Positions 28,245-56,320 are shown, numbered from the stretch's first letter. The stretch is 60,138 nt of DNA from Patescibacteria group bacterium (GCA_030837625.1 JAUPKF010000005.1:1-60138); one strand, 5' to 3'. Notes: generated from the letters alone by a model not told the origin. Translations and numbers: made by a program.

Positions 28245-28305
28245 GAAACATGAAACATGAAACATGAAACAAGCTTTGCTGTTTCATGTTTCATGTTATG
28301 TGTTG
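28240..28305. repeat. CATGAAA heptamer hairpin element
   Basis: (CATGAAA)x4 then TTTCATG TTTCATG TTATG. Confidence 0.8.
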
Positions 28306-28312
28306 CGTGACC

Positions 28313-29530: not shown

Positions 29531-29608
29531 CTTTTTTGATAATTATTTTTTAAATTATAACCAACAAACACCGCCAAGCGCGAGCCTTGGCAATATTACT
29601 ATTTTACT

Positions 29609-30799: not shown

Positions 30800-30821
30800 A
30801 GGTTTGATTATATAGTATAGT
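30793..30821 (+). promoter_or_regulatory. sigma70 promoter for the small ORF at 30846
   Basis: TTGACA-17 bp-TATAGT, overlapping the divergent GT4 start codon. Confidence 0.6.
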
Positions 30822-30845
30822 GGAAATTCGTGCGAGGTGGTGATT

Positions 30846-31046
30846 ATGAAAGCAAAACTAGAGAAGAAGGAGGACAAAGAAATGACGCCACCAGTGGTTG
30901 CCTCCAAAGAAGAGGCATTCGGAAATCTGGATAACTGTCCGCACAAATCATTTGATGGCGGGCGGTGTTATCTCGGCAAATGCAGGGGGGTAATGCCCTG
31001 TATTTCCGACGACTCGATTAACTTTCAGCAAAAGGAGGAGGAATAA
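30846..31046 (+). CDS. 66-aa hypothetical protein with four Cys
   Basis: SD GAGGTG, promoter upstream, terminator downstream. Confidence 0.55.
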   Translation: MKAKLEKKEDKEMTPPVVASKEEAFGNLDNCPHKSFDGGRCYLGKCRGVMPCISDDSINFQQKEEE

Positions 31047-31073
31047 TGATCTTCTTCACCAAACCGCGCGATC

Positions 31074-31108
31074 CGCCCCGGGCTTCCAAGCAAGCCGGGG
31101 CGTTTTTT
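31074..31108 (+). terminator. putative intrinsic terminator
   Basis: CGCCCCG/CGGGGCG stem plus T6. Confidence 0.6.
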
Positions 31109-31161
31109 ATTTTTCGATAGCTTTTAACTTTGCACTTTTAACTTTTTCCGCCATAGGCAGA

Positions 31162-34028: not shown

Positions 34029-34080
34029 ACCATTATTATATAACCCAAATCGTTTTGTGTCATCCACAGGCACGGGGTTT

Positions 34081-34192
34081 ACCCTCACACCAATCTTTAA
34101 TAATTTTTTCTATTCAGTAAAAACTAAGACGAAGTCGCTTCGCTCAAGTTTTTACTATTTAGAGCATTCTTAGTTGAGATTGGTGTGGGGGT
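34081..34192. repeat. element with 16-bp terminal inverted repeats
   Basis: ACCCTCACACCAATCT / AGATTGGTGTGGGGGT (one mismatch). Confidence 0.7.
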
Positions 34193-34483: not shown

Positions 34484-34573
34484 ACCGATTCGAATCTACG
34501 AATGAATGCGAATCTACGAATTTTTATTTGTCGATTCGTGAATTCGGATACATTCGTAGATTCGTATCGGGTA
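34484..34573. repeat. TACGAAT heptamer hairpin
   Basis: CGAATCTACGAATG / CATTCGTAGATTCG arms. Confidence 0.8.
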
Positions 34574-34578
34574 ATCTT

Positions 34579-35565
34579 ATGAAATTAATCGTCAATATCC
34601 CCGCTTATAACGAGGAAGAAAAAATTGGAGAAACCGTCCAAAGAATCAAAAAAAGTTTCGGGCTGGATTTTTATTCGTCCGGAAAAGGTTCCGTCATCAC
34701 CGAAAAACTCATCCAGCTGGTGGATGACGGCTCGGACGACAAAACCGCCGAGATCGCCAAAAATGCCGGCGCCGATATTATCATTTCCTACAAACCCAAC
34801 CGCCGTTTGGCCTATTCTTTCAAGCAAGCAGTGGAAAGTTCTCTCGCTCGCGGCGCGGATCTGATGGTCAATATCGACGCGGACGGGCAGTTTAATCCTG
34901 ACGATATTCCCAAGCTATTGGAACCGATTCTCAATGGAAAATCGGATATGGTGATTGCCAACCGGTTTGGCGAAAAAGAAGCTAAAAATATTCCTTGGAT
35001 TCGAAAAACTCTCAACAAATTCGCGGCCAGAGTAATTGGTTTTTTTCTGAACTACCGCACCAACGATTTGACTTGCGGATTTCGGGCGCACAACCGTGAA
35101 ACCATGCTTCGCCTTAATTTGACCAATATCTTTTTCACTTATACCCAGGAAACTATTATCGACGCTATTGGAAAAAATTTGAAAATCCAGTGGGTGCCGG
35201 TGGACGTGACATATTTCGACAACCGCGAGGCTAAAATCACCAAATCCATTTTCAAGTTCGTCAATAATTCTTTCAAAATAATTTTAAAAGCCATTCGCGA
35301 CGTGCGGCCGCTGAAATTCTTCGGATGGCCGGGAATTTTTTTCGTGTCTTTGGGTATTATCGGTTTCGCCATATTTTTCTTCAACTACTTTCAAGACTTC
35401 AAAATTCGTCCATATCTCAACTATATCGTCTTTTCTTCCATAACGATGTTTTTCGGCATTCAGCTGCTAATCTTCGCCCTTATCGCCGATATGGTTAAAT
35501 CATCCCGCCAACTGACGGAGGAATTTATGTATCAATGGAAGAAGGATAAATATGACAAACGGTAA
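34579..35565 (+). CDS. GT2, DPM1/GtrB-like polyprenol-phosphate glycosyltransferase with C-terminal TMs
   Basis: IPAYNEE, VDDGSDD, NIDADGQ, DLTCGFR; start at 34579. Confidence 0.9.
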   Translation: MKLIVNIPAYNEEEKIGETVQRIKKSFGLDFYSSGKGSVITEKLIQLVDDGSDDKTAEIAKNAGADIIISYKPNRRLAYSFKQAVESSLARGADLMVNIDADGQFNPDDIPKLLEPILNGKSDMVIANRFGEKEAKNIPWIRKTLNKFAARVIGFFLNYRTNDLTCGFRAHNRETMLRLNLTNIFFTYTQETIIDAIGKNLKIQWVPVDVTYFDNREAKITKSIFKFVNNSFKIILKAIRDVRPLKFFGWPGIFFVSLGIIGFAIFFFNYFQDFKIRPYLNYIVFSSITMFFGIQLLIFALIADMVKSSRQLTEEFMYQWKKDKYDKR

Positions 35566-36637
35566 ACTGAAAATTCTTTTTATAAGTCGGGCGTATCCGC
35601 CGGTTACTGGAGGGCTGGAAAACCAAAATTATGAACTTTCCGTGTGGCTTCCTAAAATCGCCGAGGTAAAAACAATAGCCAATACTCGCGGAAAAAAATT
35701 TCTGCCTTTTTTTCTTCCCTACGCTTTTCTAAAAGCGCTGTTTTTATGTAAAAAGTACGACGCTATTCTTTTAGGTGATGCGGTTCTCGGCGCCGTTGGA
35801 TGGAAATTGAAATTATTTTCCCGGAAACCCGTTGTTTGCGTCACCCACGGGTTGGATTTGACTTATCCGATGAAAATATACCAAAAGCTCTGGGTCGGTT
35901 TTTTTGCGGGAAAAATGGACAAGCTTATCGCTGTCGGAAATGAAACAATAGAAGCCGGGGCAAGAAGAGGCATTCCGAAAGACAAATTTGTTTTCATTCC
36001 TAACGGGGTCGACACGGAAAAATTTATCGAATTTCACAAGCGCGAGGAATTGGAAAAAATTGTCGGCGAAAAGTTAGAGAATAGAAAAATCATACTATCC
36101 ACGGGACGCCTGGCTGTTCACAAAGGCATTGACTGGTTTTGCGAAAACGTTGTGCCGCTTCTCGGCGAAGATATTATTTATCTTGTGGCGGGAGACGGAG
36201 AAAAAAGAAAGGATATTGAAAAAATAATCGCTTCCAAGAAATTGGAACCTAAGGTTAAAATACTGGGAAAGGTCAGTGATGAAGATTTAAAAGTTCTATA
36301 CAACACGGCCGATTTGTATGTTAAACCCAATATAAAAGTCGAAGGGACGATGGAAGGTTTTGGATTGGTGGCTATCGAGGCGGCATCGTGCAAGCTGCCG
36401 GTTATCGCGTCGAATTTGGAAGGTTTGAAAGACGCAATCAAAGACGGGCAAAACGGATTCTTGGTTGAACCGTACGATGCCGACGGATACGTGAAAAAAA
36501 TTAACGATCTGCTGAAAGATGAAGCGTATCGCCGTGACTTCGGCGAAGAAGCCAGAAAATATGTCATTGAAAATTATTCTTGGGAAAAAATTTCCCGAAG
36601 GTATTTGGAAGAAATTCAAAAAACAGTTTCAAAATAA
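35552..36637 (+). CDS. GT4 glycosyltransferase
   Basis: YPPVTGG, PNGVD, EGFGLVAIEA. Confidence 0.93.
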   Translation: MTNGKLKILFISRAYPPVTGGLENQNYELSVWLPKIAEVKTIANTRGKKFLPFFLPYAFLKALFLCKKYDAILLGDAVLGAVGWKLKLFSRKPVVCVTHGLDLTYPMKIYQKLWVGFFAGKMDKLIAVGNETIEAGARRGIPKDKFVFIPNGVDTEKFIEFHKREELEKIVGEKLENRKIILSTGRLAVHKGIDWFCENVVPLLGEDIIYLVAGDGEKRKDIEKIIASKKLEPKVKILGKVSDEDLKVLYNTADLYVKPNIKVEGTMEGFGLVAIEAASCKLPVIASNLEGLKDAIKDGQNGFLVEPYDADGYVKKINDLLKDEAYRRDFGEEARKYVIENYSWEKISRRYLEEIQKTVSK

Positions 36638-38851: not shown

Positions 38852-40939
38852 ATGCCAGATAGCATATTAAGTCAGATATTATTTTATATTTCAGCCGCTT
38901 TTGTCCTGTTTTTGCCGGGATATTTTTTGCTTGGAGTAGTTTTTAAGAAGAATAACGCTTTAGAACCGCTGGAAAAATTTATTGTTTCTTTTGGCTTGAG
39001 TATCGTCAGCGTCGATTTTATTTTTTTTCTTTATTCCCGGCTGAATATTCCCATCACGCAAACGTCGGCAATTGTTGGAATCGGAGTTTTTGTTCTGATA
39101 TGCTTTATCCTTGCCGGAGTCTCTCGAAGAGGACTCCGACAAGCCGCCGAGCCGTCGGAGTCCCTTTCAGGAGACTCCGACAAGGAAAGAAGAAGCTCTG
39201 GAACATTGATTCGTATGTCCGGCATCCGTAGCGCCGGTTCACGACGCGATAGCGGAGTGAATAACTTATTTCATTTTTCCAAAAACCAATTCATTCTCAT
39301 CTTGCTCTTGCTATTCTTGACGGTTTTCATTAAAACCGCCTACCTTTCCGGCACGATCGCGCCGACCGCCACCGATATGGGACATCATATGTATTGGGCG
39401 AAATGGCTGGCTCAGAATCATCAACTTCCGACTTATGAAGGAATGCCGGATTTTATCATCGGCGAACATATCATTTTTGGCGTCATAAGTCTGATAAGCG
39501 GCGCCGATTTTTTCTCGGCTTTTCCGGCGATTGTTTTATATCTGATAAATATTTTAAGCATCTTGACTGTCTTTATTTTGGTTTTGCGTATTTTCAAGAA
39601 TAAGACTGTCGCCATTTTATCTTTGTTCTTTTTAGGCGCGCTTTACGCCGTGTCTTCGCCGCAAGCCAAGTTTGTCAGCGGCGGCGTAATCGGAAACGTG
39701 ATGGGAAACTATTTTATGCCCCTGGCTTTTTATTTTTATTATCGAGCGCTTGAGTTCCTGAATGTAGGGGTTCAATTTATTGAACCCGAAAAACCAAAAG
39801 GGCTTGATAAATCAAACCCCTACGGTAAATCGTTATGTGACAGCAGGAAATTCTTATCCCTCGCTATTTTCACCACATTTGGTCTTTTCTACACCCACCA
39901 CTTGACTTCTTTCATCTTTCTTTTTGTTTTATTATTCTTTGTCCCCTTCTTTATTCTGATTAATTTTAAAAACATTAAGGAAATACTCAACCGCGCGCGG
40001 CCTGTCGTATTTTCACCGGCTGTCATCGGCACTTTTGTTTTAGGCTTGGTGTTTTTCTTTTTTATTTTCACGCCCACTTACGTCAATCCGGAAGCGGTGG
40101 ACACGGCGGTCGGCACGGCGGTGAAGTCCACCCGCACCGGGCTTACGCTGGAAAATATAAAGCTCACCGTCGGGGAGCCGCGTTTTGTTTTGGGGTTGAT
40201 AGGATTGCTGTTTCTAGTCTTGACTTATTTATACCCGCGCGAATTCGATAAAGATAGAAAAAATTTAGGATACGCACTGATCGTGTCCTGGTTGGTTACG
40301 CTTTTTATAATGTCGATGAAACCCAACTGGTTGTTTGTCGATATCCCCAGCGCCCGGATCGGAAATTACTTGAGCTATCCCTTGGCGATACTTTCCGCTT
40401 ATGCTTTGTACTGCACTTTTAATTCCAACTCAAAGCTTTTTGGCGAAAAAATTTCTTCCCGCGTTCCGCAAGCGCTCTTTTCCGGCGCGCTTTTGCTTTT
40501 CGTTATTTTTTCCTTCGCTCCTGGACTGGATGATTCGGCCGGCGCTTTCAAAACGCAAAACGCCGGAGAGGAAACCGTCCAGACCTTCTCCGCCTCGAAA
40601 TATCTGGCGGAAAAATCTTCTGTTTCCAATATGCTTCTCAAAGATCATAACTACATCACGGCCGACTCCTGGATAAAATTGTTTTTCATGAGAGAATATA
40701 AGTATCCCCTGTCCCGCGGATATTTCAAGCGCTACGAAGATCCGCTTAACCCTCGCGAGATGTGCACTCTCTGGATGATCGGCAGTCCGGCTTCCGCCGA
40801 TTCCCAAAAATGTTTTTCCGAAACCGGCGTCAATTTCGTGATGGTCAACCCGCGCTACGACAGCGCGCAATTTCAGAAATTGGATGAGTTTGATGAGGTT
40901 TATGTGAATGATGAAATAAATATTTTTTATAGAAAATGA
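38852..40939 (+). CDS. large multi-TM protein, probable GT-C fold, DUF1616-like N-terminus
   Basis: FLPGY.LL...LEKF..SFGLSI; TDMGHH.YW loop; more than 12 TM segments; soluble C-terminal domain. Confidence 0.65.
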   Translation: MPDSILSQILFYISAAFVLFLPGYFLLGVVFKKNNALEPLEKFIVSFGLSIVSVDFIFFLYSRLNIPITQTSAIVGIGVFVLICFILAGVSRRGLRQAAEPSESLSGDSDKERRSSGTLIRMSGIRSAGSRRDSGVNNLFHFSKNQFILILLLLFLTVFIKTAYLSGTIAPTATDMGHHMYWAKWLAQNHQLPTYEGMPDFIIGEHIIFGVISLISGADFFSAFPAIVLYLINILSILTVFILVLRIFKNKTVAILSLFFLGALYAVSSPQAKFVSGGVIGNVMGNYFMPLAFYFYYRALEFLNVGVQFIEPEKPKGLDKSNPYGKSLCDSRKFLSLAIFTTFGLFYTHHLTSFIFLFVLLFFVPFFILINFKNIKEILNRARPVVFSPAVIGTFVLGLVFFFFIFTPTYVNPEAVDTAVGTAVKSTRTGLTLENIKLTVGEPRFVLGLIGLLFLVLTYLYPREFDKDRKNLGYALIVSWLVTLFIMSMKPNWLFVDIPSARIGNYLSYPLAILSAYALYCTFNSNSKLFGEKISSRVPQALFSGALLLFVIFSFAPGLDDSAGAFKTQNAGEETVQTFSASKYLAEKSSVSNMLLKDHNYITADSWIKLFFMREYKYPLSRGYFKRYEDPLNPREMCTLWMIGSPASADSQKCFSETGVNFVMVNPRYDSAQFQKLDEFDEVYVNDEINIFYRK
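39115..39181. repeat. paired GGAGTC...GACTCC hairpins in frame
   Basis: GGAGTCTCTCGAAGAGGACTCC and GTCGGAGTCCCTTTCAGGAGACTCCGAC. Confidence 0.7.
39764..39823. repeat. 60-bp inverted GTAG-REP pair (BIME-like) in frame
   Basis: GTAGGGGTTCAATTTATTGAACCC...GGGCTTGATAAATCAAACCCCTAC. Confidence 0.8.
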
Positions 40940-41298
40940 CAACGGGAGTGCAACAAAGAAATATCATAATTTTTGTAATCGTCCTTTTCCTTGCCAGTTC
41001 CATCTGGCTTTTTTCCGTTGCCGAAAAATACACCGACCCTGACTACCAAAAAAGCTGGTGGGCGGTTTATTTTGCCGATCCAAAAGGCGGCAGTTTGGAT
41101 TTTGTCATTGAAAATCACAGCGACAAAACCGATTTTCATTATGTAATTTTATCCGGTAATCAGAAATTGAAAGAAGATAGTGTAAAAATAGAAAAAGGCT
41201 CCCAAATAGAGCTTGGCTCTACCCAAGCGGATTCGGGAAAAATTACCATCCAAGTTTCAAGTGAAGAAGAGAAAAAGGAAATATACAAGAATTTATGA
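40936..41298 (+). CDS. membrane-anchored beta-rich hypothetical protein
   Basis: N-terminal TM; 4-bp overlaps with both neighbours. Confidence 0.7.
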   Translation: MTTGVQQRNIIIFVIVLFLASSIWLFSVAEKYTDPDYQKSWWAVYFADPKGGSLDFVIENHSDKTDFHYVILSGNQKLKEDSVKIEKGSQIELGSTQADSGKITIQVSSEEEKKEIYKNL

Positions 41299-42419
41299 AA
41301 AAAATACTTTTAGTCACCCGCCCTATCGCTCCGCCTTGGGACGAGGGGTCGAAAAATTTTGCGTACTCGCTGGCTAAAAATTTGCCGGCTGGTTTGGACG
41401 TGAATTTAATGGGAACAAAAGAAAATTTGCCGGAACTGCCTCAAAATGTCCGCCGGCATCCGGTTTACACAACATCAAAAATCGCTGATTTTAATTTGGA
41501 ACAAAAATTAAGAGCGTTGTATTTTCAGTGGAAAACTCGCGGACAGTTTGACATTAATCATTATTTTTTCACTCCTACCAGATTAAATTCGTTCTTGATA
41601 AAAAATTTTTTAAGTTCAAAAAATACCAAAACAGTTCAAACCGTCGCCACGCTGCGCGAAGATTTGTGGTCGGATGAGGATATAAAGAAACTGATGTTTT
41701 CTGATTTAATCATCACCTATTCTGATTATTCCAAAAATAAATTAAACGAGCTCGGATTTCAAAATGCCGAAAGAGTCTATCCGGGAATCGATCTTTCTGA
41801 ATATGCCAACGCCGAGAAAAATGAAAAGCTTCTCAATGAATATAACCTTACGAAGTCCGACTTCGTAATAAATTCTACCGGCGAATACGTCCGCCTGGGC
41901 GCCATTGATGCGGTGATTGATAGTTTCGTTGAAGTCGCCAAAAAAATTCCCGAAGCCAGGTTGTCTTTGGCCGTACGGATCAAAAACGAAAAAGACGCTG
42001 CCAAGAAGGATGAGATAATTAAAAAATTAAAAAAACATAATTTGCTTGATCGCGTAGCGTTTCATGATGACGGAGCGTATCAAATGAAAGACATCTACAG
42101 CCTTTGCGACGTGAGCGTTTTCCCGGTGGAAAATATGCATGGGAAATTCGACGTGCCGCTGGCTGTCATTGAAGCGATGGCTTGCGAAAAACCCGTGATT
42201 CTGTCCGACATTCCAATTCTGCGCGAGTTCGCAAACGAGAAAAATTCTGTTACAATAGAAAAAGGCAATGCAGCGGCTCTGGCGCAAGCAATTCTGGATC
42301 TATACGCCCACCCCGAAAAACGCGCGGAGATCGGCCGCGAAGCCAGAAAGTACGCGAAAGAGAATTTTGATATCAAAAAAGTCGCGGGGATTTACAATGA
42401 TATTTACGAAACACTGTAA
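41295..42419 (+). CDS. GT4 glycosyltransferase
   Basis: PPWDEG, YPGID, VPLAVIEAMACEKPVI. Confidence 0.88.
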   Translation: MKKILLVTRPIAPPWDEGSKNFAYSLAKNLPAGLDVNLMGTKENLPELPQNVRRHPVYTTSKIADFNLEQKLRALYFQWKTRGQFDINHYFFTPTRLNSFLIKNFLSSKNTKTVQTVATLREDLWSDEDIKKLMFSDLIITYSDYSKNKLNELGFQNAERVYPGIDLSEYANAEKNEKLLNEYNLTKSDFVINSTGEYVRLGAIDAVIDSFVEVAKKIPEARLSLAVRIKNEKDAAKKDEIIKKLKKHNLLDRVAFHDDGAYQMKDIYSLCDVSVFPVENMHGKFDVPLAVIEAMACEKPVILSDIPILREFANEKNSVTIEKGNAAALAQAILDLYAHPEKRAEIGREARKYAKENFDIKKVAGIYNDIYETL

Positions 42420-42553: not shown

Positions 42554-42562
42554 GGACTGTTT

Positions 42563-44065
42563 ATGTCTCAATACAACCTAACAACTTTATCCGATCATAA
42601 GAAAGAACTAAAAACGGACAAAATGAAAGTTCCGGCGGTTTTTTTTATGAGCGATGAGCTACTCCCACAAGACGACACTTTTGCCAAAATGGAAGACGTC
42701 GCTTCCAATGAAAATACCCTCTTTCGCAGTTTGGTCGCTATGCCGGATGTTTGCTCGAAACCCGGCCGGAAAAACGCCTCCGGCACCACGGTTGTTTCGG
42801 AAAACTATATTTTACCCCAAGTTAACGATTCGGATCCGAACTGCGGAATGCGCTTAGTTAGAACTAACTTAACGGAAAAAGATTTGTCTTCGGAAAAAGT
42901 TGACAAATTATTTCAAGAGCTGGTAAAAGTTGTTCCTACTAAAAAATTTGTCGGCACCAGGATTCCTTTTGACGTCGTGGTCGATATTTGCCGCAAAGGA
43001 ACTTCCGCCATAATCGAACATCTCGGAATCAAAACTAAAAAAGAACTTGAGAATACTCAGAATGGCGGAAATTTCTTCTCCAAAGAAATGACACGGCAAG
43101 ATATTTTTGATGTTATCCCCAAACTTTATTTGTTTTTCGCCAAATATCGCCTGGGAATTCTGGGAGCGGCGGGGAATCACTTTTTGGATCTTATGAAAGT
43201 AGGTGAAATTATTGATCCTCAACTGGCTGAAAAATTCGGAGTAAAAAAGGGTCAGTATCTTTTTATGATCCACACCGGATCGGGAATTCTCGGTCAATAC
43301 ACGATGTACACCCATACCGCGAAAAAACGAGAACATTTATCGCAAGCTCTTATGGTAACTCTTGGAAAAATGACCTTCAACTCCCAAAAGAAAGATACCT
43401 ATAAAAAAATGCAAAAAATTATAAAAAGTCATATGTGTGGTGATAATTCTCTTTTAAAATATGCCGCCAAAGGAGCTGACGGAGAATTGTATATGAACGC
43501 CCGGGCGGCCGCTTCGAACTTTGGTACGGCTAATCGCGCCGTCATTACTCATAATATTTCAGAAGCAACAAAAAAGATTATCGGCAAAGACCCGGAAATG
43601 GATTTGATCTACGATATGCCCCATATCTCAATAACTGAGGAAGAGCATTTTGGCAAAAATGTGTTTGTTCATCGAAGTAATACCTCGAGAGCGTATGGTC
43701 CGGGCAAAATGTCCCATCATCCTGTTTACGAAGAAACCGGCGAACCCGTTTTTATTCCATCTTCTATGAGCACCCCGGCCTATCTTTGCGTCGGCACGGA
43801 CAAAAATGAAGAAAGTTTCTACTCCGCCCCGCACGGCACCGGCAAAGGAACCAATCAAAAGGAGAAATACATTTCCACTAAGGAAGAATTGTTCGCCAAA
43901 ATGGAGACCAAGGGCGTACGGCTCTACAATGCCCGATCATCCATCGTGGTCAACCAGGACAGTGCCCGCTACAAAAATATCGATAAAGTTATGGAAGGAG
44001 TCGAAGCCAACGGCATCGCGCATGTCGTGGCGAAAATGGAACCGGTGGCGGTTTTGATGTACTGA
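42563..44065 (+). CDS. rtcB: divergent RtcB-family protein
   Basis: MPD, D-P-NCGMRL.RTNL, GNHF, HTGS, YD.PH, HR...RA, P.SM, HGTG, YKNID.V. Confidence 0.85.
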   Translation: MSQYNLTTLSDHKKELKTDKMKVPAVFFMSDELLPQDDTFAKMEDVASNENTLFRSLVAMPDVCSKPGRKNASGTTVVSENYILPQVNDSDPNCGMRLVRTNLTEKDLSSEKVDKLFQELVKVVPTKKFVGTRIPFDVVVDICRKGTSAIIEHLGIKTKKELENTQNGGNFFSKEMTRQDIFDVIPKLYLFFAKYRLGILGAAGNHFLDLMKVGEIIDPQLAEKFGVKKGQYLFMIHTGSGILGQYTMYTHTAKKREHLSQALMVTLGKMTFNSQKKDTYKKMQKIIKSHMCGDNSLLKYAAKGADGELYMNARAAASNFGTANRAVITHNISEATKKIIGKDPEMDLIYDMPHISITEEEHFGKNVFVHRSNTSRAYGPGKMSHHPVYEETGEPVFIPSSMSTPAYLCVGTDKNEESFYSAPHGTGKGTNQKEKYISTKEELFAKMETKGVRLYNARSSIVVNQDSARYKNIDKVMEGVEANGIAHVVAKMEPVAVLMY

Positions 44066-44158: not shown

Positions 44159-44833
44159 ATGAAGCTTATCACAATTTCAGGATTAGACGGAAGCGGAAAG
44201 TCGACACAAATAAAGTTATTGCAAGATTATTTGGAGCAAAAAGGTTCCAGAGTTTTTTATTTTCACGCGATCCAATTTGGTTTGGCGAAAAAAATCACTG
44301 ATTTCAGGAATAAATATTGTTTGATATGCAAGCTTTTGGGAAAGTGCAAAGTCTATCAAGAAAAAAGCGTGACACGTGCCAACGCCTGGCAAATATTTTT
44401 GCGGAAATTATTCTTACGGATTGACATTTGGCGGTTTAAGTTGTTACGTAACCAGTTGCGTAACAAAAATTATGATTATATTTTGAGCGATAGATATTTT
44501 CATGACAGCGTGGTGAATATCGAGTATTTATGTCATCCCCGTGAAAACGGGGATCCAGTCTCGGGACTTAAATTTTTTACACTAGATTCCCGCCTGCGCG
44601 GGAATGACATAGAGAAACCCGGTCTGGCCATTTACATCCAAACTTCCCCGGAAACCATTATGCGGCGCGAGCGCGTGCCAGATCAGGGATTGGAATATCT
44701 CAAAAAGAAAAAAGAATTATACGACGCTAAAATTGACGAATGGGGATTGAAAGTTGTGGATGGGAGTAGAGATAAAAATGTTATTTTTGAAGATATTAAA
44801 AATTTGATAAAAAAAGTCGGTTCAGGTCTCTGA
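44159..44833 (+). CDS. thymidylate-kinase-like P-loop kinase
   Basis: ISGLDGSGKSTQ, ILSDRY, VVDG. Confidence 0.8.
   Translation: MKLITISGLDGSGKSTQIKLLQDYLEQKGSRVFYFHAIQFGLAKKITDFRNKYCLICKLLGKCKVYQEKSVTRANAWQIFLRKLFLRIDIWRFKLLRNQLRNKNYDYILSDRYFHDSVVNIEYLCHPRENGDPVSGLKFFTLDSRLRGNDIEKPGLAIYIQTSPETIMRRERVPDQGLEYLKKKKELYDAKIDEWGLKVVDGSRDKNVIFEDIKNLIKKVGSGL
44531..44609. mobile_element. 79-bp dRS3-like palindromic element in frame
   Basis: TGTCATCCCC...GGGAATGACA; translates CHPRENGDP...DSRLRGND. Confidence 0.85.
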
Positions 44834-45238: not shown

Positions 45239-46759
45239 ATGTCAAGTACTCTCGCCAAATCAGCCATACTAGTAACAATTTCCGAAATTGTTTTTAATGT
45301 TACCAGTTTTTTGGTCCACGTGGTCGTGGGGCGGATTTTGGGTCCGGCGGATTACGGCCGTTTTGGATTGGTAGTGACGCTGACCACGATGGTCATTATC
45401 CTTATCGGAAACGGCATTCCGACGGCGATGAGTAAATATCTCAGCGAGATTTTTGAAACCCAGCCGGCGCTGATAAAGGTAATCAAACGCCAGGCTATTA
45501 TTTTGCAAAGCATTCTTATTGGTGCCATAACTCTAATATTTTTCTTTTCCGCGCCGCTTATCGCCAAGATTTTGGGCGATCCGACGCTCACTCCCCTTTT
45601 CCGGCTGTCTACGCTTATCATCCCCGCTTTCGCCGCCGCTTCTTTCTATTTTTCCTACTACACCGGGCTGCACAAATTCGGCGTCCAATCTTTCCTGAAA
45701 ATTTCCCGCTCCCTTTTTCGGGTGATTTTCATAATTTCCTTGGCTTTCTTTTTTCGATTGGAAGGCTCGGTTATGGGCTACATCGCCGCGCCGCTGGCTG
45801 TGTTCTTGCTGGCGGCGGGAATTGATAGGTTTAAAATATCAAAAGAATTACAACCCGCCCCTGTAGGGGCGATTCATGAATCGCCCCTACAGGATGTCGC
45901 GCAATCCTCTTTCGATTGGAAAAAACTAATCTCCTACGCCTGGCAGATAATTGTTTTCTTTTTGGCGTACGAACTTTTGATCAGTATTGATCTATATCTG
46001 GTCAAGGGCATAATTCAAAATGATTATTTGACCGGGGTATATAACGCTTCTTTGACGCTGGGACGCTTTCCCTACTATCTCTTTTACGCCTTAACGGTTA
46101 TTCTTTTGCCGGTCGTTTCCAAAACTACTTCGGAGAATAATCACAAAGATACTCATAAAGTCATTTCCCAGTCGCTCCGCCTGATGCTGGTTTTGCTTTC
46201 CCCCATCGTTGTTTTGATGTCGGTTTATAGCTTGCCGCTTATAAAATTATTTTACGGCCAAAACTTCCTGGAAGCGGCTGTCCCGATGTCAATTTTGGTT
46301 TTCGGTGTCGGATTCCTCACAATTTTCTACGTGATGAGCTTTGTGATGAATGGTGCGGGACACACCAAGATTCCGATGTGGATAGCCACGTTCGGCCTCG
46401 TCGCTAATACTGTTTTGAATTACATTCTTATAAAGCAATACGGCATTGTCGGTTCGGCCATTGCCACCACCGCCGTTTCGTTTCTCATAATGCTCGTTAT
46501 GCTTTATTACATCGGCAAATATTTTGGCGTGTTGGTGGGTTTCAAAAGCCTTACTAAGATCATCTTCGCTTCCGGCGCGATATACGCCGCGTCTCTTTTT
46601 TCCCCGGCTGACAATTACATTTTTATTCTTTGGTCGCTTATCTTTACTCTCGCCTATTTTTCCATCCTCTTTGCTGCGGGAGAAATAAAAAAAGAGGATC
46701 TGATGTTCCTCAAAAAATCCATCTTATCTAAAAGTAAATCAAAGAAGAAAAACCCATAG
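45239..46759 (+). CDS. Wzx-like polysaccharide flippase (MOP superfamily)
   Basis: about 14 TM; RILGPADYG.F, G.YNA...L, N..LI..YGIVGSAIAT. Confidence 0.9.
   Translation: MSSTLAKSAILVTISEIVFNVTSFLVHVVVGRILGPADYGRFGLVVTLTTMVIILIGNGIPTAMSKYLSEIFETQPALIKVIKRQAIILQSILIGAITLIFFFSAPLIAKILGDPTLTPLFRLSTLIIPAFAAASFYFSYYTGLHKFGVQSFLKISRSLFRVIFIISLAFFFRLEGSVMGYIAAPLAVFLLAAGIDRFKISKELQPAPVGAIHESPLQDVAQSSFDWKKLISYAWQIIVFFLAYELLISIDLYLVKGIIQNDYLTGVYNASLTLGRFPYYLFYALTVILLPVVSKTTSENNHKDTHKVISQSLRLMLVLLSPIVVLMSVYSLPLIKLFYGQNFLEAAVPMSILVFGVGFLTIFYVMSFVMNGAGHTKIPMWIATFGLVANTVLNYILIKQYGIVGSAIATTAVSFLIMLVMLYYIGKYFGVLVGFKSLTKIIFASGAIYAASLFSPADNYIFILWSLIFTLAYFSILFAAGEIKKEDLMFLKKSILSKSKSKKKNP
45860..45893. repeat. 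34-bp perfect palindrome, GTAG-type REP, in frame
   Basis: CCTGTAGGGGCGATTCATGAATCGCCCCTACAGG. Confidence 0.85.
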
Positions 46760-48139
46760 AAAAGCCAGCTTTCTTACCAGGGCGGTTCTGGATATTTCCT
46801 TGCCCAAAATATTTTCATAATACTTGATTTTATTCTCTATCTCCTGAGAAAGCGCCGTGAGTGATTGTCTTTGTTCCTCCAATTCCGATTGCGATAAAAG
46901 ATCTTTTACTTCTTTCAACCAGACGCTGTCTTTCTCAATTTCCTTTTTCATAATGCCAGTCGGATACTCCCCGACTCCAAACAAGAACAGTGCTAGCTTG
47001 TTTCTCTTTGTCAAATTTTCCAAATCTGCCGTTGCTCTCCGAGAAGACTCTTTAAATAAAAATTCTATCTCGTCGGCTCTTTCCGCCAAAGCTTTCTCTT
47101 TATCGGCTTTTTCTTGGGTAATATCAACTTCAATCGGTCTGTTTTCTTCTCCCAGCATCAGGAGGTGCGCGTCTTCTTGCCGGTTTTCAACCGGCTGGTC
47201 GGTTATCGCGTTGTCGGTATTCTCGTTATCATCCACTGCCTCGGCAATATGGCAAAACGCGTTTATCGGATCCGTGCCGTTTGCTTCGATGGTATTGTTT
47301 TCCAAATTTATAGAGTCTTTCCAATACCAAAAAGTTGGCTCTCCTCCGCTGGGTAAAGCGCAGGTAAATCCATAATTATTGTTTCCGCTAATCTGGTTTT
47401 CCGCTATTCTTATTTTTCCGGCGCGATTAGACTCCTGATAAAACTGGGCGGCAATTCCGCTAGCGCGGTTGTTTCTTATCGTGTTGCCTGATATTTCCAA
47501 TTCCGAGCTACCGACGATGAATTCAATCCCACTCTCTTTGTTGCCGTAAATCTTATTTCCCCTGACGCTGCCGATGACTCCCGCCCGAATATCAATTCCC
47601 TCTTCTCCGTTGTCAAATATGTTGCTGTCCTCTATCTCCACTTCATTGCCCGCCTGGATATACATAGCCTTGCGTTCATTATCATACAAGTCAGTTTTTT
47701 TAACAGTAATTTTTCCCTTGCCGGCAGCCACATTTATTCCAATACTTCTTGATTTTTTAACAATGCAGTTTTCCACCGCCGCTTTGGCGCCTTTGGCCAC
47801 GTCAATGGCGATATTGCCTCCTTCCACGGTAATGTCTTTGACTAAATTCTTTCCCTCCATCGTCAAGGCGCCGTTTAGGGCAACTTCCTTGCGGCTTTCT
47901 CCAAATAGTTCCGCTGAATCCTTAAGAATAACGCTTTCTTCATAAAGCCCGGCGTAAATAAATATTTTTCCGGAAGGCGAAAATTCCAAAGCTTTGGCAA
48001 TGCTTCGGAAAGGACGCTCGCGGCTCCCATCCTCTTCTCCTATATAATTTTTATTTACATAAACATCATAAGACTCTCCGCGAATTTTGAAGGGAAGCAA
48101 TAAAAAAACCCCTATAATGACCAAGCAATATGTTTTCAT
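46739..48139 (-). CDS. secreted right-handed parallel beta-helix protein with a helical C-terminus
   Basis: signal peptide, YV...DGS...PF.SI..AL, repeated I..N.I..N...GI units. Confidence 0.8.
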   Translation of the reverse strand: MKTYCLVIIGVFLLLPFKIRGESYDVYVNKNYIGEEDGSRERPFRSIAKALEFSPSGKIFIYAGLYEESVILKDSAELFGESRKEVALNGALTMEGKNLVKDITVEGGNIAIDVAKGAKAAVENCIVKKSRSIGINVAAGKGKITVKKTDLYDNERKAMYIQAGNEVEIEDSNIFDNGEEGIDIRAGVIGSVRGNKIYGNKESGIEFIVGSSELEISGNTIRNNRASGIAAQFYQESNRAGKIRIAENQISGNNNYGFTCALPSGGEPTFWYWKDSINLENNTIEANGTDPINAFCHIAEAVDDNENTDNAITDQPVENRQEDAHLLMLGEENRPIEVDITQEKADKEKALAERADEIEFLFKESSRRATADLENLTKRNKLALFLFGVGEYPTGIMKKEIEKDSVWLKEVKDLLSQSELEEQRQSLTALSQEIENKIKYYENILGKEISRTALVRKLAFLWVFLL

Positions 48140-49899
48140 TATTCGGCCGCGTCAATCTCAATGGCGCCGGAATCATTTTTTGTGTTGAAGACGTCCTTCC
48201 AAAAAACCCTGTCAGTCGCGCCCTTATCTTCATTGAAGCGAAAATCTTCTTTTTTGGAACTTTCCAAAAATTCTACTTCCTGTACTTTTATCTGCCCAAG
48301 CTCTTTCGAATCGATTACTTTCAATTTTCCCTTGAATTTATCTTCCAAAAATTTGAGGTTTTTTTCCGCGGGGAAAACAGCGAAATATTGTCCGTTCGGA
48401 TCGTTTTGGTCTTTCAATGGGAAATATTTCAAATCCGGATCGTTTTTTTGAAAAAGCAGGTATCTTATCGGCTGGACATGCTCCGGTTTGACGTAGAAAT
48501 GAATGTTTGCCCCGGTTATTTTCTTTTCATAAATAAAATCCGCCGCCTTTTCCAGTTGCCCGAGCGTTACGCCGTCCTGGTTTTTCAAAATTAACGTTCG
48601 GTCAATGGAAATGTTTTTGTTTTGCGAATCGGCCTGCTCCTTAAACCAGGCGGCCGTTCCTTTGATATTCAAACCGATAATGGCCGCCGTAATGATCAAC
48701 GCCGCGTATTTTCCTTTGGAAGAAAATTTTTCGTCTAGAAACTGGAATACCAGTCCTAAAAATATGAAAGGAATCGGAAAGACGGAAATAAAAAAGCGTG
48801 GTCGCAATGAAGAATAAAGCGGAATCGCCAGCAGAAAAAAAATCCCGAACCAAGCCGCTAAAAGCCGCAAGAAATCCTTTCTGGCGCCGTCTTTTTCATT
48901 TTTCAACTGTCTGGCGGTTAACAGCAAGCCGGAAAGCATTATCAGCGCGGTGAGCAGGCCGAATTCGGCATTATCCTTTGTTTTCCCCTTATAGCACTCA
49001 GCGGTAGTGATCAGGCAATAATGCTTAATTTGCTTATCAAAAGACCGGGAAATTTTCGTGGACAGGGATTTTTTATTGGGTTTGGTTGAAAAAGCTTGAA
49101 TAAAATTTTTCGTATTTTCCCCTTTTCGCATCACGTCGCTAATAATAACCGGTGAATAAATCAAAAGGAAAACAGCCAGAAAAGCGCCGGAAAGCCAAAG
49201 CGTTTTTTTAAAAGAGAATGTTTCCATTGCCCGCCTTATCCCTTTTGGATGCCAAAGCTGAAAATGTGTAAACAAAACCAGCCCGGAAATAATCAAGAGA
49301 CAAAAAAGCCCCAAAAAGTGCAGTTGGCTGCCAATAGCCGTCCCCAGCGCCCAAACAACCGCCCAAGCAGCCTGTTGCTTGAAACTATCAGCTTTTAACA
49401 TTTTCAAAAGTCCGTAGAAGCTTAGCAGCGTAAAAAATAGCAAAGAATTGGGATTCCAAGCAAAACGAGAATATTGAATAACCAGGAAGGAAAAGGCGTA
49501 CATCGATGTTACCAAAAAAGAGTTTCTTTTTTCAAAATACAGCCGCAAAAATAGATAGAGCAGCGGTATGGTCAGGATTGAAAAAAACAAGTCCGGATAA
49601 GCGAAAACTTCCGGTTCGGTTGAATTGAAAATTGCCCCGGCGGCGTATTGGAAATAGTAAAAAATCGGGCCCAGGCGCAAAAATCCGGCGGAAACATCCG
49701 TGGCTCCGGCTCGCGGCCCCAAAAGCGGCAAATGTTCCGGCCCGTTCTTAACGGCGTTTCCTACCATAAAAGTATCGCGCGCCTGGTCCATCTTGAAATA
49801 CAGCCAATCGTTATGTTGATATGTCCTGACCCAAATCGCCGCAATCATCAAAACCGAAAAAGAAACCGCCAAAAGTTTGTTGTTTTTGAGATAGTTCAT
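48139..49899 (-). CDS. GT-C (ArnT/PMT-like) glycosyltransferase
   Basis: DQARD, LLGPRAG, LGP.FYY, SRFAWNPN, SQLHF. Confidence 0.8.
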   Translation of the reverse strand: MNYLKNNKLLAVSFSVLMIAAIWVRTYQHNDWLYFKMDQARDTFMVGNAVKNGPEHLPLLGPRAGATDVSAGFLRLGPIFYYFQYAAGAIFNSTEPEVFAYPDLFFSILTIPLLYLFLRLYFEKRNSFLVTSMYAFSFLVIQYSRFAWNPNSLLFFTLLSFYGLLKMLKADSFKQQAAWAVVWALGTAIGSQLHFLGLFCLLIISGLVLFTHFQLWHPKGIRRAMETFSFKKTLWLSGAFLAVFLLIYSPVIISDVMRKGENTKNFIQAFSTKPNKKSLSTKISRSFDKQIKHYCLITTAECYKGKTKDNAEFGLLTALIMLSGLLLTARQLKNEKDGARKDFLRLLAAWFGIFFLLAIPLYSSLRPRFFISVFPIPFIFLGLVFQFLDEKFSSKGKYAALIITAAIIGLNIKGTAAWFKEQADSQNKNISIDRTLILKNQDGVTLGQLEKAADFIYEKKITGANIHFYVKPEHVQPIRYLLFQKNDPDLKYFPLKDQNDPNGQYFAVFPAEKNLKFLEDKFKGKLKVIDSKELGQIKVQEVEFLESSKKEDFRFNEDKGATDRVFWKDVFNTKNDSGAIEIDAAE

Positions 49900-49931
49900 A
49901 GTTTATATAATACCTAAAAAAATAAATTTTA

Positions 49932-51656
49932 TCAATCAAAAATTTCTTCCCATAGATATCTTTTTGGCGCGCCGCTGCGGTGTTTCTTCGGGGGCTGTTC
50001 CAGATTTGGCGTTTCATCGGTTATTTCACCTTCTTTCGGAAGCAATGTTAAGACGGAAAGCGTTCCAAAATTTTTGACGCCGGCTATATCATAGAGCGGC
50101 GTTTCTTTTTTCCCCAAAGAATATGATCCATCACTGCGCGTAAAATCCACCCAAAAATAATTGGCCTGCCGGTAGATATGGTCGCGCGGAATCTTATCGT
50201 CAAAAACCGCTTCGTCTTCTTTCAGCAGAAACTCCAGCGCCGGCACGTAACGCGCGTCTCCCGAAAAGAAAATCGCCTGACCGTTTTCTGTTTGCGATTG
50301 GAGCATATATTTTTCGATCATTTTTTCCTGCCGGTACGTTACCCGCGTTTTTTCCTTAAGCAGCAGATCTAAATCGGTTTCCAAGTTTATTTTATGTGCC
50401 ATCGCCAATTCGCCAAAGCGTTTTTTGACTTCCAAGCCGTTGGAAACCGCCAAAATAAAAACAACGGCCGATATCACCCAAATCGGTTTCATTTTTCGGG
50501 GAATTGTTTCAAGAATCAATCCCAAAAACACAAACGGCAAAAAAGCCGATATAAGAAAATAGCGCGGAGAAAGCTCCATCGCTAGCGGGATAAAAAGCAA
50601 GAAAATGGCAGAAAACCAAAGCCCGTTAAGAAGCAAGAAATCTTTTCGGCGCGGATCGGTTTCTTTTTTGAAATTCAAAACCAAAATCAAAAAACCAAAA
50701 AACACAAAAGCCGCGCTAAAAAATCCCAAATAATAATCCTGGGGGCAATTCTCGCCGCAGTCGCGATATCGGGCAGCCAGTCCGTTAAGGTTCAATCCCA
50801 AGAGACTATTGCCGTCCCGCCCCGAAAGAATCAAAAAATATCCGGCGGAGTGTTCTTTTATGTTAAAAAATATTTTATTCACAAGACTTACGGAACTATC
50901 CTCCGATTTTCCGCTGATGGTTTTTAGAAATTCTTCGGTATTATCTCCGCCGGTTTGATATTCATTCAGGAAAACCGGAATATAAAAGAGCAACGCTATC
51001 GAAATTGCCAACATCCAAAATTTAAGGCTGATTTTTGGACGCTTGAAAATAAAAAATATCAAAAAAACAAGAGGCAGGGCGATGAACGCCAAAAAATGCA
51101 ACTGGGTGGAAATGGAAAGCGACGTCAGAGCCGCCGCCAGCCAAATTCCCCGCCGGGATTCTTTTTCGTCCACCGCTCGCAATGTGGAATACAGAGCCAA
51201 GGGAACAAAAAATACCAAAGGATTAGGATTCCAGGCAAAGCGGGAATACATAATGAGAAAAATGGAAAAGTTCGAAATGGCGAAAAGCGCCAAGGAGATT
51301 TTTTTGTCGAAATACCGGCGGAAAAAAAGATACATAAGCGGAAGGGAAAAAATTGCCAAAAGCAAAACCCCGACCGCCATTCCGGGCGGAGTGTTGCCGA
51401 AAATTTTGGCGCTGGCGTATTCCAAATAGTAGTAAGCCGGGCCGAGCCGGAGGAAAGTTCCGCGGGCGCGCGGACCGAGAAGCGGCAATTCGGAAATACT
51501 CCCCTCCGCCGCTGAAAAAACCACATCAGCGTCTCGCGCCTGGTCAAGCTCGAAATGAAGCCAGTCGGAAAAATTGTAAGTTCTCAAGAAACATCCTAAG
51601 GCTAATATGCCTAAAAATGCCGCTAGAAAAGCTTTTTTTTGAAAAATAAAACGCAT
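49932..51656 (-). CDS. GT-C (ArnT/PMT-like) glycosyltransferase
   Basis: DQARD, LLGPRARG, LGPAYYY, SRFAWNPN; start at 51656 (TAATG coupling). Confidence 0.8.
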   Translation of the reverse strand: MRFIFQKKAFLAAFLGILALGCFLRTYNFSDWLHFELDQARDADVVFSAAEGSISELPLLGPRARGTFLRLGPAYYYLEYASAKIFGNTPPGMAVGVLLLAIFSLPLMYLFFRRYFDKKISLALFAISNFSIFLIMYSRFAWNPNPLVFFVPLALYSTLRAVDEKESRRGIWLAAALTSLSISTQLHFLAFIALPLVFLIFFIFKRPKISLKFWMLAISIALLFYIPVFLNEYQTGGDNTEEFLKTISGKSEDSSVSLVNKIFFNIKEHSAGYFLILSGRDGNSLLGLNLNGLAARYRDCGENCPQDYYLGFFSAAFVFFGFLILVLNFKKETDPRRKDFLLLNGLWFSAIFLLFIPLAMELSPRYFLISAFLPFVFLGLILETIPRKMKPIWVISAVVFILAVSNGLEVKKRFGELAMAHKINLETDLDLLLKEKTRVTYRQEKMIEKYMLQSQTENGQAIFFSGDARYVPALEFLLKEDEAVFDDKIPRDHIYRQANYFWVDFTRSDGSYSLGKKETPLYDIAGVKNFGTLSVLTLLPKEGEITDETPNLEQPPKKHRSGAPKRYLWEEIFD

Positions 51657-56302: not shown

Positions 56303-56320
56303 TTTCCTGAATTTTACGCT

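Follow-up and report, generated by a model that had tools for sequence, protein, structure and literature searches.

An RtcB-fold protein tied to glycosyltransferase and kinase genes in a patescibacterial glycan island may no longer act on polynucleotides

The DNA analysed here (the window, 60,138 nucleotides) comes from a Patescibacteria group bacterium (GCA_030837625.1 JAUPKF010000005.1:1-60138). A gene for an RtcB-like protein of 500 amino acids (aa), with an ATG start, lies at 42563..44065 on the plus strand, in the middle of a region of ~30 kb (~27-58 kb of the window) that Pfam annotation marks as one cell-envelope glycan island. Directly upstream lies a gene for a family 4 glycosyltransferase (GT4; 41295..42419, plus strand; Pfam Glycos_transf_1, 6e-18). 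Downstream, on the same strand, follow a Tmk-fold P-loop kinase gene (44159..44833), recognised by a partial Pfam Thymidylate_kin match and a PDB profile match, and a gene for a flippase of the Wzx/MOP family (45239..46759; Pfam Polysacc_synt, 2.6e-23, and MurJ). The gaps between the four genes are 143 bp, 93 bp and 405 bp, respectively. An earlier interpretation of the window, made from the DNA alone and referred to below as the sequence-only reading, had proposed this gene order and the absence of RNA-repair neighbours; both were confirmed, as Pfam annotation gave the order GT4, RtcB-like, Tmk-like, Wzx, and no archease, RtcA or RtcR was found among the 41 window open reading frames (ORFs) scanned with Pfam. 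No tRNA or Rfam RNA family that might hint at an RNA substrate was found in the window.

The protein matches the Pfam RtcB family (PF01139) with a score of 246.9 bits (cut-off 27; E=6.1e-73), the alignment spanning protein residues 52-498 and model positions 10-424 of 426. Its closest solved structure, in a HMMER search of PDB, is the RtcB of P. horikoshii (Pho; E=1.7e-51). An AlphaFold model (pTM 0.82, mean pLDDT 71.8, several active-site loops of low confidence) aligns with Pho RtcB-GMP 4dwq at TM scores of 0.79/0.82, and the top 16 Foldseek matches to the model were all RtcB. The ORF coordinates and the full-length archaeal-type RtcB fold that had been claimed earlier are thus borne out by the Pfam match, the Pho RtcB match and a TM score of ~0.8. 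The 120 best homologues listed are 76-82% identical, which indicates strong purifying selection on the gene; those with an organism name are labelled Moranbacteria, Parcubacteria or Patescibacteria, which places the window in a Moranbacteria-type bacterium of the candidate phyla radiation (CPR). The public names of these proteins are 'tRNA-splicing ligase RtcB' or 'RtcB family protein'.

The motifs of the RtcB catalytic core are retained: MPD at residues 60-62, DSDPNCG at 89-95, GNH at 204-206, HTGS at 237-240, YDMPH at 350-354 and HGTG at 424-427. His424 in the motif HGTGK (codon at 43832..43834, plus strand) aligns with Pho His404, the nucleotidyl-accepting nucleophile. To describe conservation, 84 Moranbacteria-level orthologues were tabulated against 80 canonical RtcBs at positions whose roles are known from Pho structures. 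The His404 equivalent is His in 84/84 orthologues and 80/80 canonical proteins, and the equivalents of the binuclear metal ligands of Pho RtcB, Asp95, Cys98, His203, His234 and His329 (PMC9745838), are invariant in both sets. The same holds for the equivalents of Asp65, Tyr451 and Asn202, the last of which contacts the attacking 5'-OH in Pho RtcB (PMC8051266). The earlier statement that the metal ligands and the catalytic His are kept therefore stands for the window protein, in which every motif it named was found, and for all 84 orthologues. We conclude that this is an RtcB-fold protein with an intact, invariant catalytic centre, and we propose on the strength of these residues that it is catalytically competent.

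Around this centre, residues that are nearly universal in canonical RtcBs are replaced. Aligned to Pho RtcB, the window protein has MPDVC for MPDGH, PHI for AHN, HRSN for HRKG, HGTGKgtNQ for HGAGRvlSR, NQDS for EEAP and LMY for the AKG end. Every substitution listed in the sequence-only reading is present in this HMMER alignment, although H67->C, the part of MPDxH->MPDVC that affects the His, is not clade-defining (C40/H24/S9/T6 among the 84 orthologues). Further changes had been overlooked: R238->G, R190->F, Q194->R, E206->D and a longer segment after HTGS. Arg238, Arg190 and Gln194 of Pho RtcB touch the first phosphodiesters of the 5'-OH strand (Banerjee et al., PMC8051266), and R189A in E. 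coli RtcB, the equivalent of Arg238, slows sealing 200-fold (PMC8051266). In the orthologues, Arg190 is replaced by Phe (78), Ile (5) or Met (1), while Gln194 is Arg and Arg238 is Gly in all 84; the canonical set has Arg190 in 78, Gln194 in 76 and Arg238 in 80 of 80. The base-specific guanine contacts of Pho RtcB, Glu206 (to N1/N2) and Lys480 (to O6) (PMC9745838), are likewise changed: Glu206 is Asp in 84/84 orthologues and Lys480 is Met (75), Val (8) or Gly (1), whereas each is kept in 79 of the 80 canonical proteins. Met499-Tyr500 (44057..44062, plus strand) stand in place of Pho Lys480-Gly481, and the last residue is Tyr in all 84 orthologues versus Gly in 78 of 80 canonical RtcBs. Asn330, which hydrogen-bonds the GTP gamma-phosphate in Pho RtcB (PMC9745838), is Ile (81) or Val (3) and is Asn in the entire canonical set.

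Two conserved motifs have diverged as well. HRKG becomes HR(S/N)(N/G), with the Lys, present in 80 of 80 canonical proteins, changed to Ser or Asn, and HGAGRxxSR becomes HG(T/A)GK, with Lys at the Arg408 position in 82 orthologues and a variable residue at the Arg412 position (Arg in 80 and 80 of the canonical 80). Pho Arg408 and Arg412 (E. coli Arg341 and Arg345) were counted as conserved-motif differences only, with no contact role assigned. The contacts listed as replaced are kept by 76-80 of the 80 canonical RtcBs. The protein falls below the NCBIfam RtcB equivalogs, scoring 113.4 bits with NF007153 (cut-off 407) and 78 with TIGR03073 (cut-off 271.8). The longer segment, residues 247-300 (43301..43462, plus strand), counts 53 residues versus 27 in canonical RtcBs, a difference of ~26 aa; it comes immediately after the HTGSG motif, the site of the lost Arg238, and helices are predicted at 257-269 and 277-291 with low-to-medium pLDDT. 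Polynucleotide and guanine contacts have thus been systematically replaced around an intact catalytic centre. The changed 5'-OH-strand, guanine and gamma-phosphate contacts would fit a non-RNA substrate and, in the subclade of the window protein, a different nucleotide.

An exhaustive search of 50%-identity representatives returned 1843 relatives, and a neighbour-joining (NJ) tree was built from the 98 full-length representatives nearest to the window protein (the query). Within it, we define an 'HxK' superclade by monophyly and by an (L/M)PDxHxK-type motif with a Lys two residues past the His67 position. The clade has 54 tips, which share the motif, and a bootstrap of 99/100. Most of its members have the long insert and lack Arg238, Asn330 and HRKG. 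The query, with MPDVCSKPG at this site, keeps the Lys while the His is Cys, and it groups inside the clade with P0126, P0129 and P0133 (91/100). Nested in the HxK clade is a 10-tip subclade of proteins ending in LMY or LTY, the query among them (100/100). Glu206 and the C-terminal Lys-Gly are changed in this subclade alone, where HGxGK or HExGK replaces HGAGR; elsewhere in the superclade the guanine contacts are kept. A motif rule (no Arg238 plus long insert) was also tried as a definition of the group and was rejected, as it gave no clean bipartition (0/100 versus 99/100 for HxK).

Some members of the group have degenerated. P0124, P0127, P0128 and P0130, which form part of the 10-tip subclade, have (E/S)SH for GNH and HE(I/L)G for HGxG and have lost the YK motif, and P0131 has lost both His203 and the His404 nucleophile. 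These syntenic orthologues are only ~30-41% identical to the query; P0124 (L088, 10001-11470) carries the name Moranbacteria. The changes suggest an altered function or a loss of catalysis in this branch. As a separate observation, canonical RtcBs with HTGSRGLGH and HGxGRTMSRH (P0316, P0347, P0418, P0430 and relatives) are 80-91% conserved and widespread in other Parcubacteria lineages (Portnoybacteria, Nealsonbacteria), so that some CPR bacteria keep a standard RNA ligase. The 120 best matches listed in a search seeded with the canonical CPR protein P0316 bear Portnoybacteria, Nealsonbacteria and Parcubacteria names and no Moranbacteria name.

Gene neighbourhoods were compared in a scan of species-representative genomes, which yielded 271 relatives. 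The best 80 loci (56-81% identical, mostly labelled as Moranbacteria/Moraniibacteriota metagenome-assembled genomes, MAGs) and four loci from exact-protein look-ups make up an 84-locus set. Nearly all loci with enough flank have the order GT4b, DUF1616, small ORF, GT4, RtcB-like, Tmk-like, Wzx. A GT4 gene lies <=3 kb from the RtcB-like gene in 75/84 loci and a Tmk-like gene in 70/84, most exceptions being contig ends, and Wzx follows the Tmk-like gene in 66/84. One locus (L047) has tandem RtcB-like ORFs (2-1657 and 2092-3786), which were considered as a paralogue pair; over 551 residues the two show 100% identity, and a GT4 fragment separates them, so that the tandem is probably an assembly artefact. 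The same Moranbacteria-type locus also occurs, at 57-78% identity, in MAGs labelled Bathyarchaeia, Bdellovibrionales, Pseudobdellovibrionaceae or Micavibrio (L017, L022, L030, L034, L039, L047, L048, L052, L072, L073, L077 and L080), which suggests mis-binned contigs or wrong taxonomic labels.

Eight distant branches, 31-45% identical to the query, were sampled as well (L085, L087-L093). The P0122 locus (45%; L085) has DUF1616-like, small-ORF, GT4 and RtcB-like genes in that order, and the P0124 locus (41%; L088) has UDP-sugar dehydrogenase, GT2, GT4, DUF1616, small-ORF, GT4, RtcB-like, Tmk-like and Wzx genes. GT4, RtcB-like and Tmk-like genes follow one another at the P0127 locus (35%; L089), with sulfotransferase, LPG_synthase_TM and epimerase genes nearby. 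For P0126 (34%; L090), an LPG_synthase_TM gene precedes the RtcB-like gene, and two GT4s, a radical-SAM gene and a Tmk-like gene are on the other strand. The order is GT4, LPG_synthase_TM, RtcB-like, PMT_2 for P0129 (33%; L091) and RtcB-like, GT4 for P0135 (31%; L092), while for P0136 (33%; L093) GT4 and RtcB-like genes come after Wzx and UDP-sugar dehydrogenase genes on the other strand. P0123 (41%), on a 2.9-kb contig (L087), has upstream of it, without a GT4, a CofD/YvcK-family gene (298-1302; Pfam 4e-80), with 25 bp between the end of that gene and the RtcB-like gene. Enzymes of the CofD type move a phospho group from a guanosine-diphospho donor and release GMP, and by analogy the pairing is chemically suggestive.

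Two loci from other phyla show related arrangements. In an Omnitrophica MAG (L175), genes for NTP_transferase, CDP-alcohol phosphatidyltransferase, methyltransferases and GT2 lie upstream of a series consisting of a GT4::HprK-like fusion, LPG_synthase_TM, RtcB-like, GT-C-like, GT2, formyltransferase/deacetylase and epimerases. A Calditrichia MAG (L174) has two APH-type kinases, two GT4s, a two-component system, an HprK-like gene and the RtcB-like gene, in this order. At junctions of the RtcB-like gene with the GT4 or flippase-like gene in L088, L089, L091, L093 and L175, stop and start codons overlap or are within a few bases of each other; in L091 and L175 the overlap is with the flippase-like LPG_synthase_TM gene.

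Eighty metagenome loci, all with canonical RtcBs (HTGSRG, HRKGATRA, HGAGRxxSR, KG end) and drawn from mixed phyla rather than from CPR genomes, served as the control. A GT4 gene <=3 kb away was found in 1/80 of them versus 6/8 of the distant branches with the same HMM (Fisher p=3.5e-7); the latter figure becomes 7/8 when the Pfam-found GT4 of L092 is counted. A Pfam check of 12 control loci, covering 20 immediately neighbouring genes, found no glycosyltransferase, and in 2 of the 12 the gene directly upstream encodes archease, the classical partner of RtcB. No archease, RtcA, RtcR or PrfH was called next to any sampled HxK-clade gene. We conclude that the clade is consistently inside glycan loci, a point on which the sequence-only reading had made its case depend.

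The GT4 next to the RtcB-like gene matches Glycos_transf_1 with 65.4 bits and Glyco_trans_1_4 with 60.6 bits (gathering cut-offs 26.4 and 27); its N-terminal acceptor domain has no Pfam match. Over its full length, it scores 383, 355, 238, 171 and 136 bits with the RtcB-linked GT4s of the distant loci L088, L085, L089, L093 and L090, respectively, versus 32-50 bits with its three GT4 paralogues in the window. We conclude that this GT4 is a specific orthologue that has co-diverged with the RtcB-like gene. As judged from these comparisons, co-inheritance applies to the query subclade and to the branches of P0126 and P0136; L174 and L175 have GT4s of another subfamily.

The kinase gene is also conserved, while its family switches: it is of Tmk fold in Moranbacteria, L088, L089 and L090, and HprK-like in L174 and L175. 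The query has both a GT4 and a P-loop kinase gene beside it. In the Tmk-like neighbour, the Pfam Thymidylate_kin match covers the P-loop only, and TIGR00041 matches residues 2-34 only, at 34.8 bits versus a cut-off of 83.25. The family alignment has conserved SGxDGSGKSTQ, YFHA and DRYF, with YFHA at the site of the nucleoside-monophosphate motif (FPNRET in P. falciparum Tmk). A profile of the family matches PDB thymidylate kinases at 1e-13, which supports a Tmk fold, and a true tmk gene beside holB in L108 scores 32 bits with the family HMM, versus 95-260 for members. Judged by these tests, the Tmk-like neighbour is no standard dTMP kinase. In L174 the HprK-like protein has a gene of its own (8758-9858), which immediately precedes the RtcB-like gene; in L175 it is fused to the GT4 (6806-9049). 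Natural HprK-like::RtcB fusions also occur (P0222, 885 aa; P0166, 755 aa), and their C-terminal RtcB is of the HxK type. Their N-termini are homologous over the full length to the L174 HprK-like protein (blastp 3.7e-31 for P0222 and 3.6e-53 for P0166), with an intact P-loop. Pfam gave only RtcB and intein matches on long RtcB representatives, the fusions being recognised solely by BLAST with the L174 protein.

Taking family, fold, residue replacements, linkage, co-inheritance and fusions as the observations to be accounted for, we propose a scheme in which each chemical step, the substrate and the nucleotide are inferred. We hold, with moderate confidence, that the window protein is an RtcB-fold enzyme that no longer acts on polynucleotides and would instead carry out the phosphate-activating step of a kinase, RtcB-like, GT4 cassette on a non-nucleic-acid phosphomonoester. 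The Tmk-like (elsewhere HprK-like) kinase would phosphorylate a hydroxyl of a sugar or lipid-linked intermediate to give a phosphomonoester. The RtcB-like protein would nucleotidylate itself on His424, using a two-metal site formed by Asp91, Cys94, His206, His237 and His354, and would then move the nucleoside monophosphate (NMP) to the phosphomonoester to yield X-O-P-P-nucleoside, the same chemistry as in the formation of RNA3'pp5'G. In the variant that we narrowly favour, this nucleoside diphosphate (NDP)-activated compound would be the donor for the co-inherited GT4; it is favoured because it gives all three conserved partners a role with precedent in kinase/nucleotidylyltransferase/glycosyltransferase logic. 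The cytoplasmic cassette would feed a flippase (Wzx or LPG_synthase_TM-type) and GT-C enzymes that build an envelope glycoconjugate. Since the guanine contacts are changed in the query subclade, the nucleotide used there is probably not GTP. The earlier suggestion that RtcB chemistry is used on a non-RNA acceptor thus finds support in the glycan-locus linkage, the co-inherited GT4, the fusions and the lost contacts.

The chemistry may alternatively run to completion, an ending that we regard as a near-equal alternative to the NDP-donor variant and that was the leading idea of the sequence-only reading. All three RtcB steps would then take place on non-RNA substrates: the kinase-made phosphomonoester would be NMP-activated and then, with release of NMP, coupled to a hydroxyl group on a second sugar, a lipid, a polyol or a protein side chain. 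This would leave a phosphodiester bridge of the teichoic-acid or phosphoglycan type, and the role of the GT4 would be to make the substrate or to elongate the product. The linkage evidence is the same, and the invariance of Asn202 in 84/84 orthologues fits such a sealing step; in L091 and L175, overlap with the flippase-like LPG_synthase_TM gene points to a membrane lipid as the substrate, the island is teichoic-acid-like in character (WecG/TagA, LCP), and the neighbour with an NMP-kinase fold could recycle the released NMP. This account, however, gives the co-inherited GT4 no specific role and comes with no candidate acceptor, and the Tmk-like protein is without the usual NMP-binding motif; we regard it as possible, though rather unlikely. 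We think it improbable that the protein is a diverged but ordinary RNA (or DNA) 3'-phosphate/5'-OH ligase for repair or splicing, its place in a conserved gene order being incidental. In favour of such a ligase, the RtcB is full-length, all its catalytic residues are intact and it is under strong purifying selection, CPR gene clusters often mix functions, and, with no Moranbacteria name among the best canonical matches listed, the HxK type may be the only RtcB of these bacteria. The window also encodes a LigT/2H phosphoesterase (12877-13419, plus strand; Pfam 1e-21), its sole RNA-end enzyme, 29 kb from the RtcB-like gene, with a counterpart in L002-L004 at about 1709-2287, ~8 kb upstream of the RtcB-like gene. 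Against a plain RNA ligase, the orthologous GT4 and the glycan linkage are still seen where identity falls to 31-45%, where the context is rearranged and where the phylum is unrelated, while this linkage is near-absent from the 80 canonical loci (GT4 in 1/80), where archease is seen instead. All three 5'-OH-strand contacts are replaced, archease, RtcA, RtcR and PrfH were not found nearby, and some syntenic orthologues are retained even though they lack nucleotide-contact residues or the His nucleophile.

The protein might instead be a non-catalytic scaffold that organises a GT4 and kinase complex, its active site being vestigial; the motif changes in the sister branch (P0124, P0127, P0128, P0130) and the loss of His203 and His404 in P0131 point this way. 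But neither the window protein nor any of its 84 orthologues departs from the metal ligands, the His nucleophile or Tyr451, which is unexpected of a vestigial site, and most of the degenerate branch still keeps the metal ligands and His404, so we judge a scaffold very unlikely. Hypermodification of nucleic acids does involve GT-B glycosyltransferases and P-loop kinases, and RtcB is otherwise a nucleic-acid enzyme; a cassette of kinase, RtcB-like protein and GT4 acting on DNA, RNA or tRNA, for instance in phosphorylation-dependent glycosylation, would have this precedent, and other GT4s of the island give weak 'GT4-conflict' Pfam matches. The GT4 adjacent to the RtcB-like gene has no such match, however, the polynucleotide contacts are lost, and the genes are set among, and in some loci translationally coupled with, Wzx, flippase-like, GT-C/PMT_2, Wzy, LCP, UDP-sugar dehydrogenase and epimerase genes; of the readings weighed here, this one appears the least probable. 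Several points weigh against the activating enzyme that we favour. Kinase and ligase pairs are typical of RNA repair too, and kinase coupling alone leaves an RNA substrate possible; the case consequently rests on the GT4, flippase and GT-C context. Ordinary sugar-1-phosphate nucleotidylyltransferases exist, with one in L175 itself, and the need for an RtcB-type activator is unexplained. P0123 adjoins a CofD/YvcK-family gene in place of a GT4, a two-component system separates the GT4s from the RtcB-like gene in the Calditrichia locus, and the contexts sampled come from HxK members outside three sub-branches (P0145-like, P0146-like and P0138-like). CPR genomes, which the control set does not represent, are GT4-rich (five GT4s in the window). 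The protein called HprK-like is so assigned on weak matches (NCBIfam HprK-related kinase A/B at ~1e-8, below cut-offs; PDB HPr kinase/PEPCK profile at 1.6e-4), and the active-site loops are among the low-confidence parts of the predicted model. N202 and G405 are altered in P0124, P0127 and P0131, and in P0131 even H404 is lost. Finally, the junctions in the window are not tight, and an opposite-strand ORF lies inside the 405-bp gap before Wzx.

The favoured activating enzyme shares with canonical RtcB (Pho, E. coli, human RTCB) its Pfam family, its fold, the two-metal site and the His404-equivalent nucleophile and, presumably, the His-NMP and phosphate-pp-nucleoside chemistry. The window protein differs from it in lacking Arg190, Gln194, Arg238, Glu206, Lys480, Asn330, HRKG and the SR after HGAGR, in the ~26 aa that it has in excess after HTGS, in an HxK-type motif that replaces HxGY, and in having GT4, kinase and flippase genes as neighbours rather than archease, RtcA, RtcR or PrfH. 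In the rtcBA-rtcR, RtcB-archease and RtcB2-PrfH operons, an RtcB-family gene is likewise found in a conserved operon with dedicated partners; those partners are RNA- or ribosome-related, whereas the HxK-type genes are accompanied by genes for a glycosyltransferase, a P-loop kinase and membrane proteins of glycan export or transfer.

The proposed order of reactions resembles that of salvage cassettes such as HldE, the FKP fucokinase-GDP-fucose pyrophosphorylase and AmgK-MurU, in which a kinase is followed by NTP-using activation to an NDP compound and then by a glycosyltransferase; kinase::nucleotidylyltransferase fusions are known and parallel the HprK-like::RtcB fusions. The nucleotidylyltransferases of these cassettes have a Rossmann-like NTP_transferase fold and form no covalent enzyme-NMP, in contrast to the RtcB fold and the putative His-NMP of the HxK enzyme, and we know of no description of an RtcB fold with a His-NMP intermediate as a salvage-type nucleotidylyltransferase. 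TagF/TarL CDP-glycerol glycerophosphotransferases, LicD and Stealth hexose-1-phosphoryltransferases make sugar- or polyol-phosphate diesters in envelope polymers with release of NMP. They need a separately made NDP/CDP donor and have an unrelated fold, while an RtcB-type enzyme would activate and transfer in one active site. A precedent for halting at NMP transfer is the capping of DNA 3'-phosphates by RtcB, which stops without sealing at DNA3'pp5'G as the end product; its substrate is still a polynucleotide and its nucleotide is GTP.

We found no report in the literature searched that links RtcB with glycan or glycolipid loci, although the main comparative survey of RtcB contexts may mention one. 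Here, a large monophyletic branch of RtcB has kept its catalytic machinery, has shed its polynucleotide contacts and, in one subclade, its guanine contacts, and is genetically tied to genes for a glycosyltransferase, a kinase and glycan export. The fold and the chemistry are known ones, apparently turned to another area of metabolism. If so, His-NMP/pyrophosphate activation chemistry has been recruited into cell-envelope biosynthesis, which would give glycobiology a new enzyme class, would correct a mis-annotation ('tRNA-splicing ligase RtcB') that recurs systematically in many genomes of the CPR and of other groups, and would open a way to study surface-polymer assembly in the reduced Patescibacteria. 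Much more tentatively, HxK enzymes may be the first RtcB-fold enzymes with a non-nucleic-acid substrate, forming kinase-coupled, 'phosphorylate-then-ligate' phosphodiester or pyrophosphate links in envelope glycans, glycolipids or phosphoglycosylated proteins, with a non-GTP nucleotide in the Moranbacteria subclade. Were 'phosphorylate-then-ligate' true, it would amount to previously unknown enzymology of bacterial surface-polymer assembly across CPR, Omnitrophica, Calditrichia and other lineages.

The remainder of the island consists largely of glycan genes. Its left arm (27435..34088, minus strand; Pfam) encodes a GT2, a LytR-CpsA-Psr (LCP) ligase, a GT4, a Wzy_C polymerase/ligase and a further GT4, and the island has a WecG/TagA enzyme in addition to the LCP ligase; Pfam scans of the window revealed no TagF/TagD-type genes. 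The co-directional run on the plus strand is headed by a GT2 (34528-35565) and a second GT4 (35552-36637), both found by Pfam at 34528..36637; this GT4 is conserved upstream of the DUF1616 gene across loci. The latter gene (38852..40939, plus strand; Pfam) encodes a large polytopic membrane protein (DUF1616/DUF6541) that is a conserved upstream member of the run. Between it and the RtcB-adjacent GT4 lies a gene (40936..41298, plus strand) for a 120-aa protein with a hydrophobic N-terminus, which has no Pfam match and has an orthologue in most loci.

Beyond Wzx, a gene on the minus strand (46739..48139) encodes a right-handed beta-helix protein (Pfam Beta_helix, 2e-17; NosD), probably secreted and polysaccharide-binding or -modifying, and this gene reappears downstream of Wzx in several loci. 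It is followed by three paralogous PMT_2/GT-C-type membrane glycosyltransferase genes (48139..53293, minus strand), of which that at 48139-49899 has a Pfam PMT/PMT_2 match and those at 49932-51704 and 51656-53293 were assigned through orthologues that match by phmmer and HMM. Two more PMT_2/GT-C paralogues (54392-56302 and 56321-58201; 54392..58201, plus strand; Pfam PMT_2) come after an intervening metallophosphoesterase gene. Five such paralogues within 10 kb are an unusually large set for a small genome and imply several lipid-linked sugar donors or acceptors.

The spacers around the RtcB-like gene contain repeats. That upstream of the gene (42420-42562) is AT-rich, with short direct repeats (AAATCACAAATTACAAATCACAAAT) and inverted repeats, and inverted repeats of TACGAAT/ATTCGTA are found in the 93 bp that follow it. 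All these repeats may act in regulation or as terminators; promoter and terminator scans between the GT4, RtcB-like and Tmk-like genes gave nothing above background. Directly after the Tmk-like stop codon (44817-44905) are two similar GC-rich perfect hairpins (CGGTTCAGGTCTCTGACCTGAACCG and CGGTTCAAGTCTGGAGACTTGAACCG), a motif with no other copy in the window, and beyond them is an 80-aa ORF (44913-45155, minus strand) with no Pfam match. The Tmk-like and Wzx genes abut or overlap in many related loci, so the hairpins and the ORF look like a small insertion. Just upstream of the DUF1616 gene, at 36749-38754, there is a tandem copy of a two-gene unit that encodes a 103-aa membrane protein and a ~215-aa protein with a type IV pilin-like N-terminus (GVSLIEVL(I/V)VIAIIAILSSVILV). 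The copies are 90% and 77% identical in DNA, with a spacing of 1036 nt, and their proteins could be targets of glycosylation.

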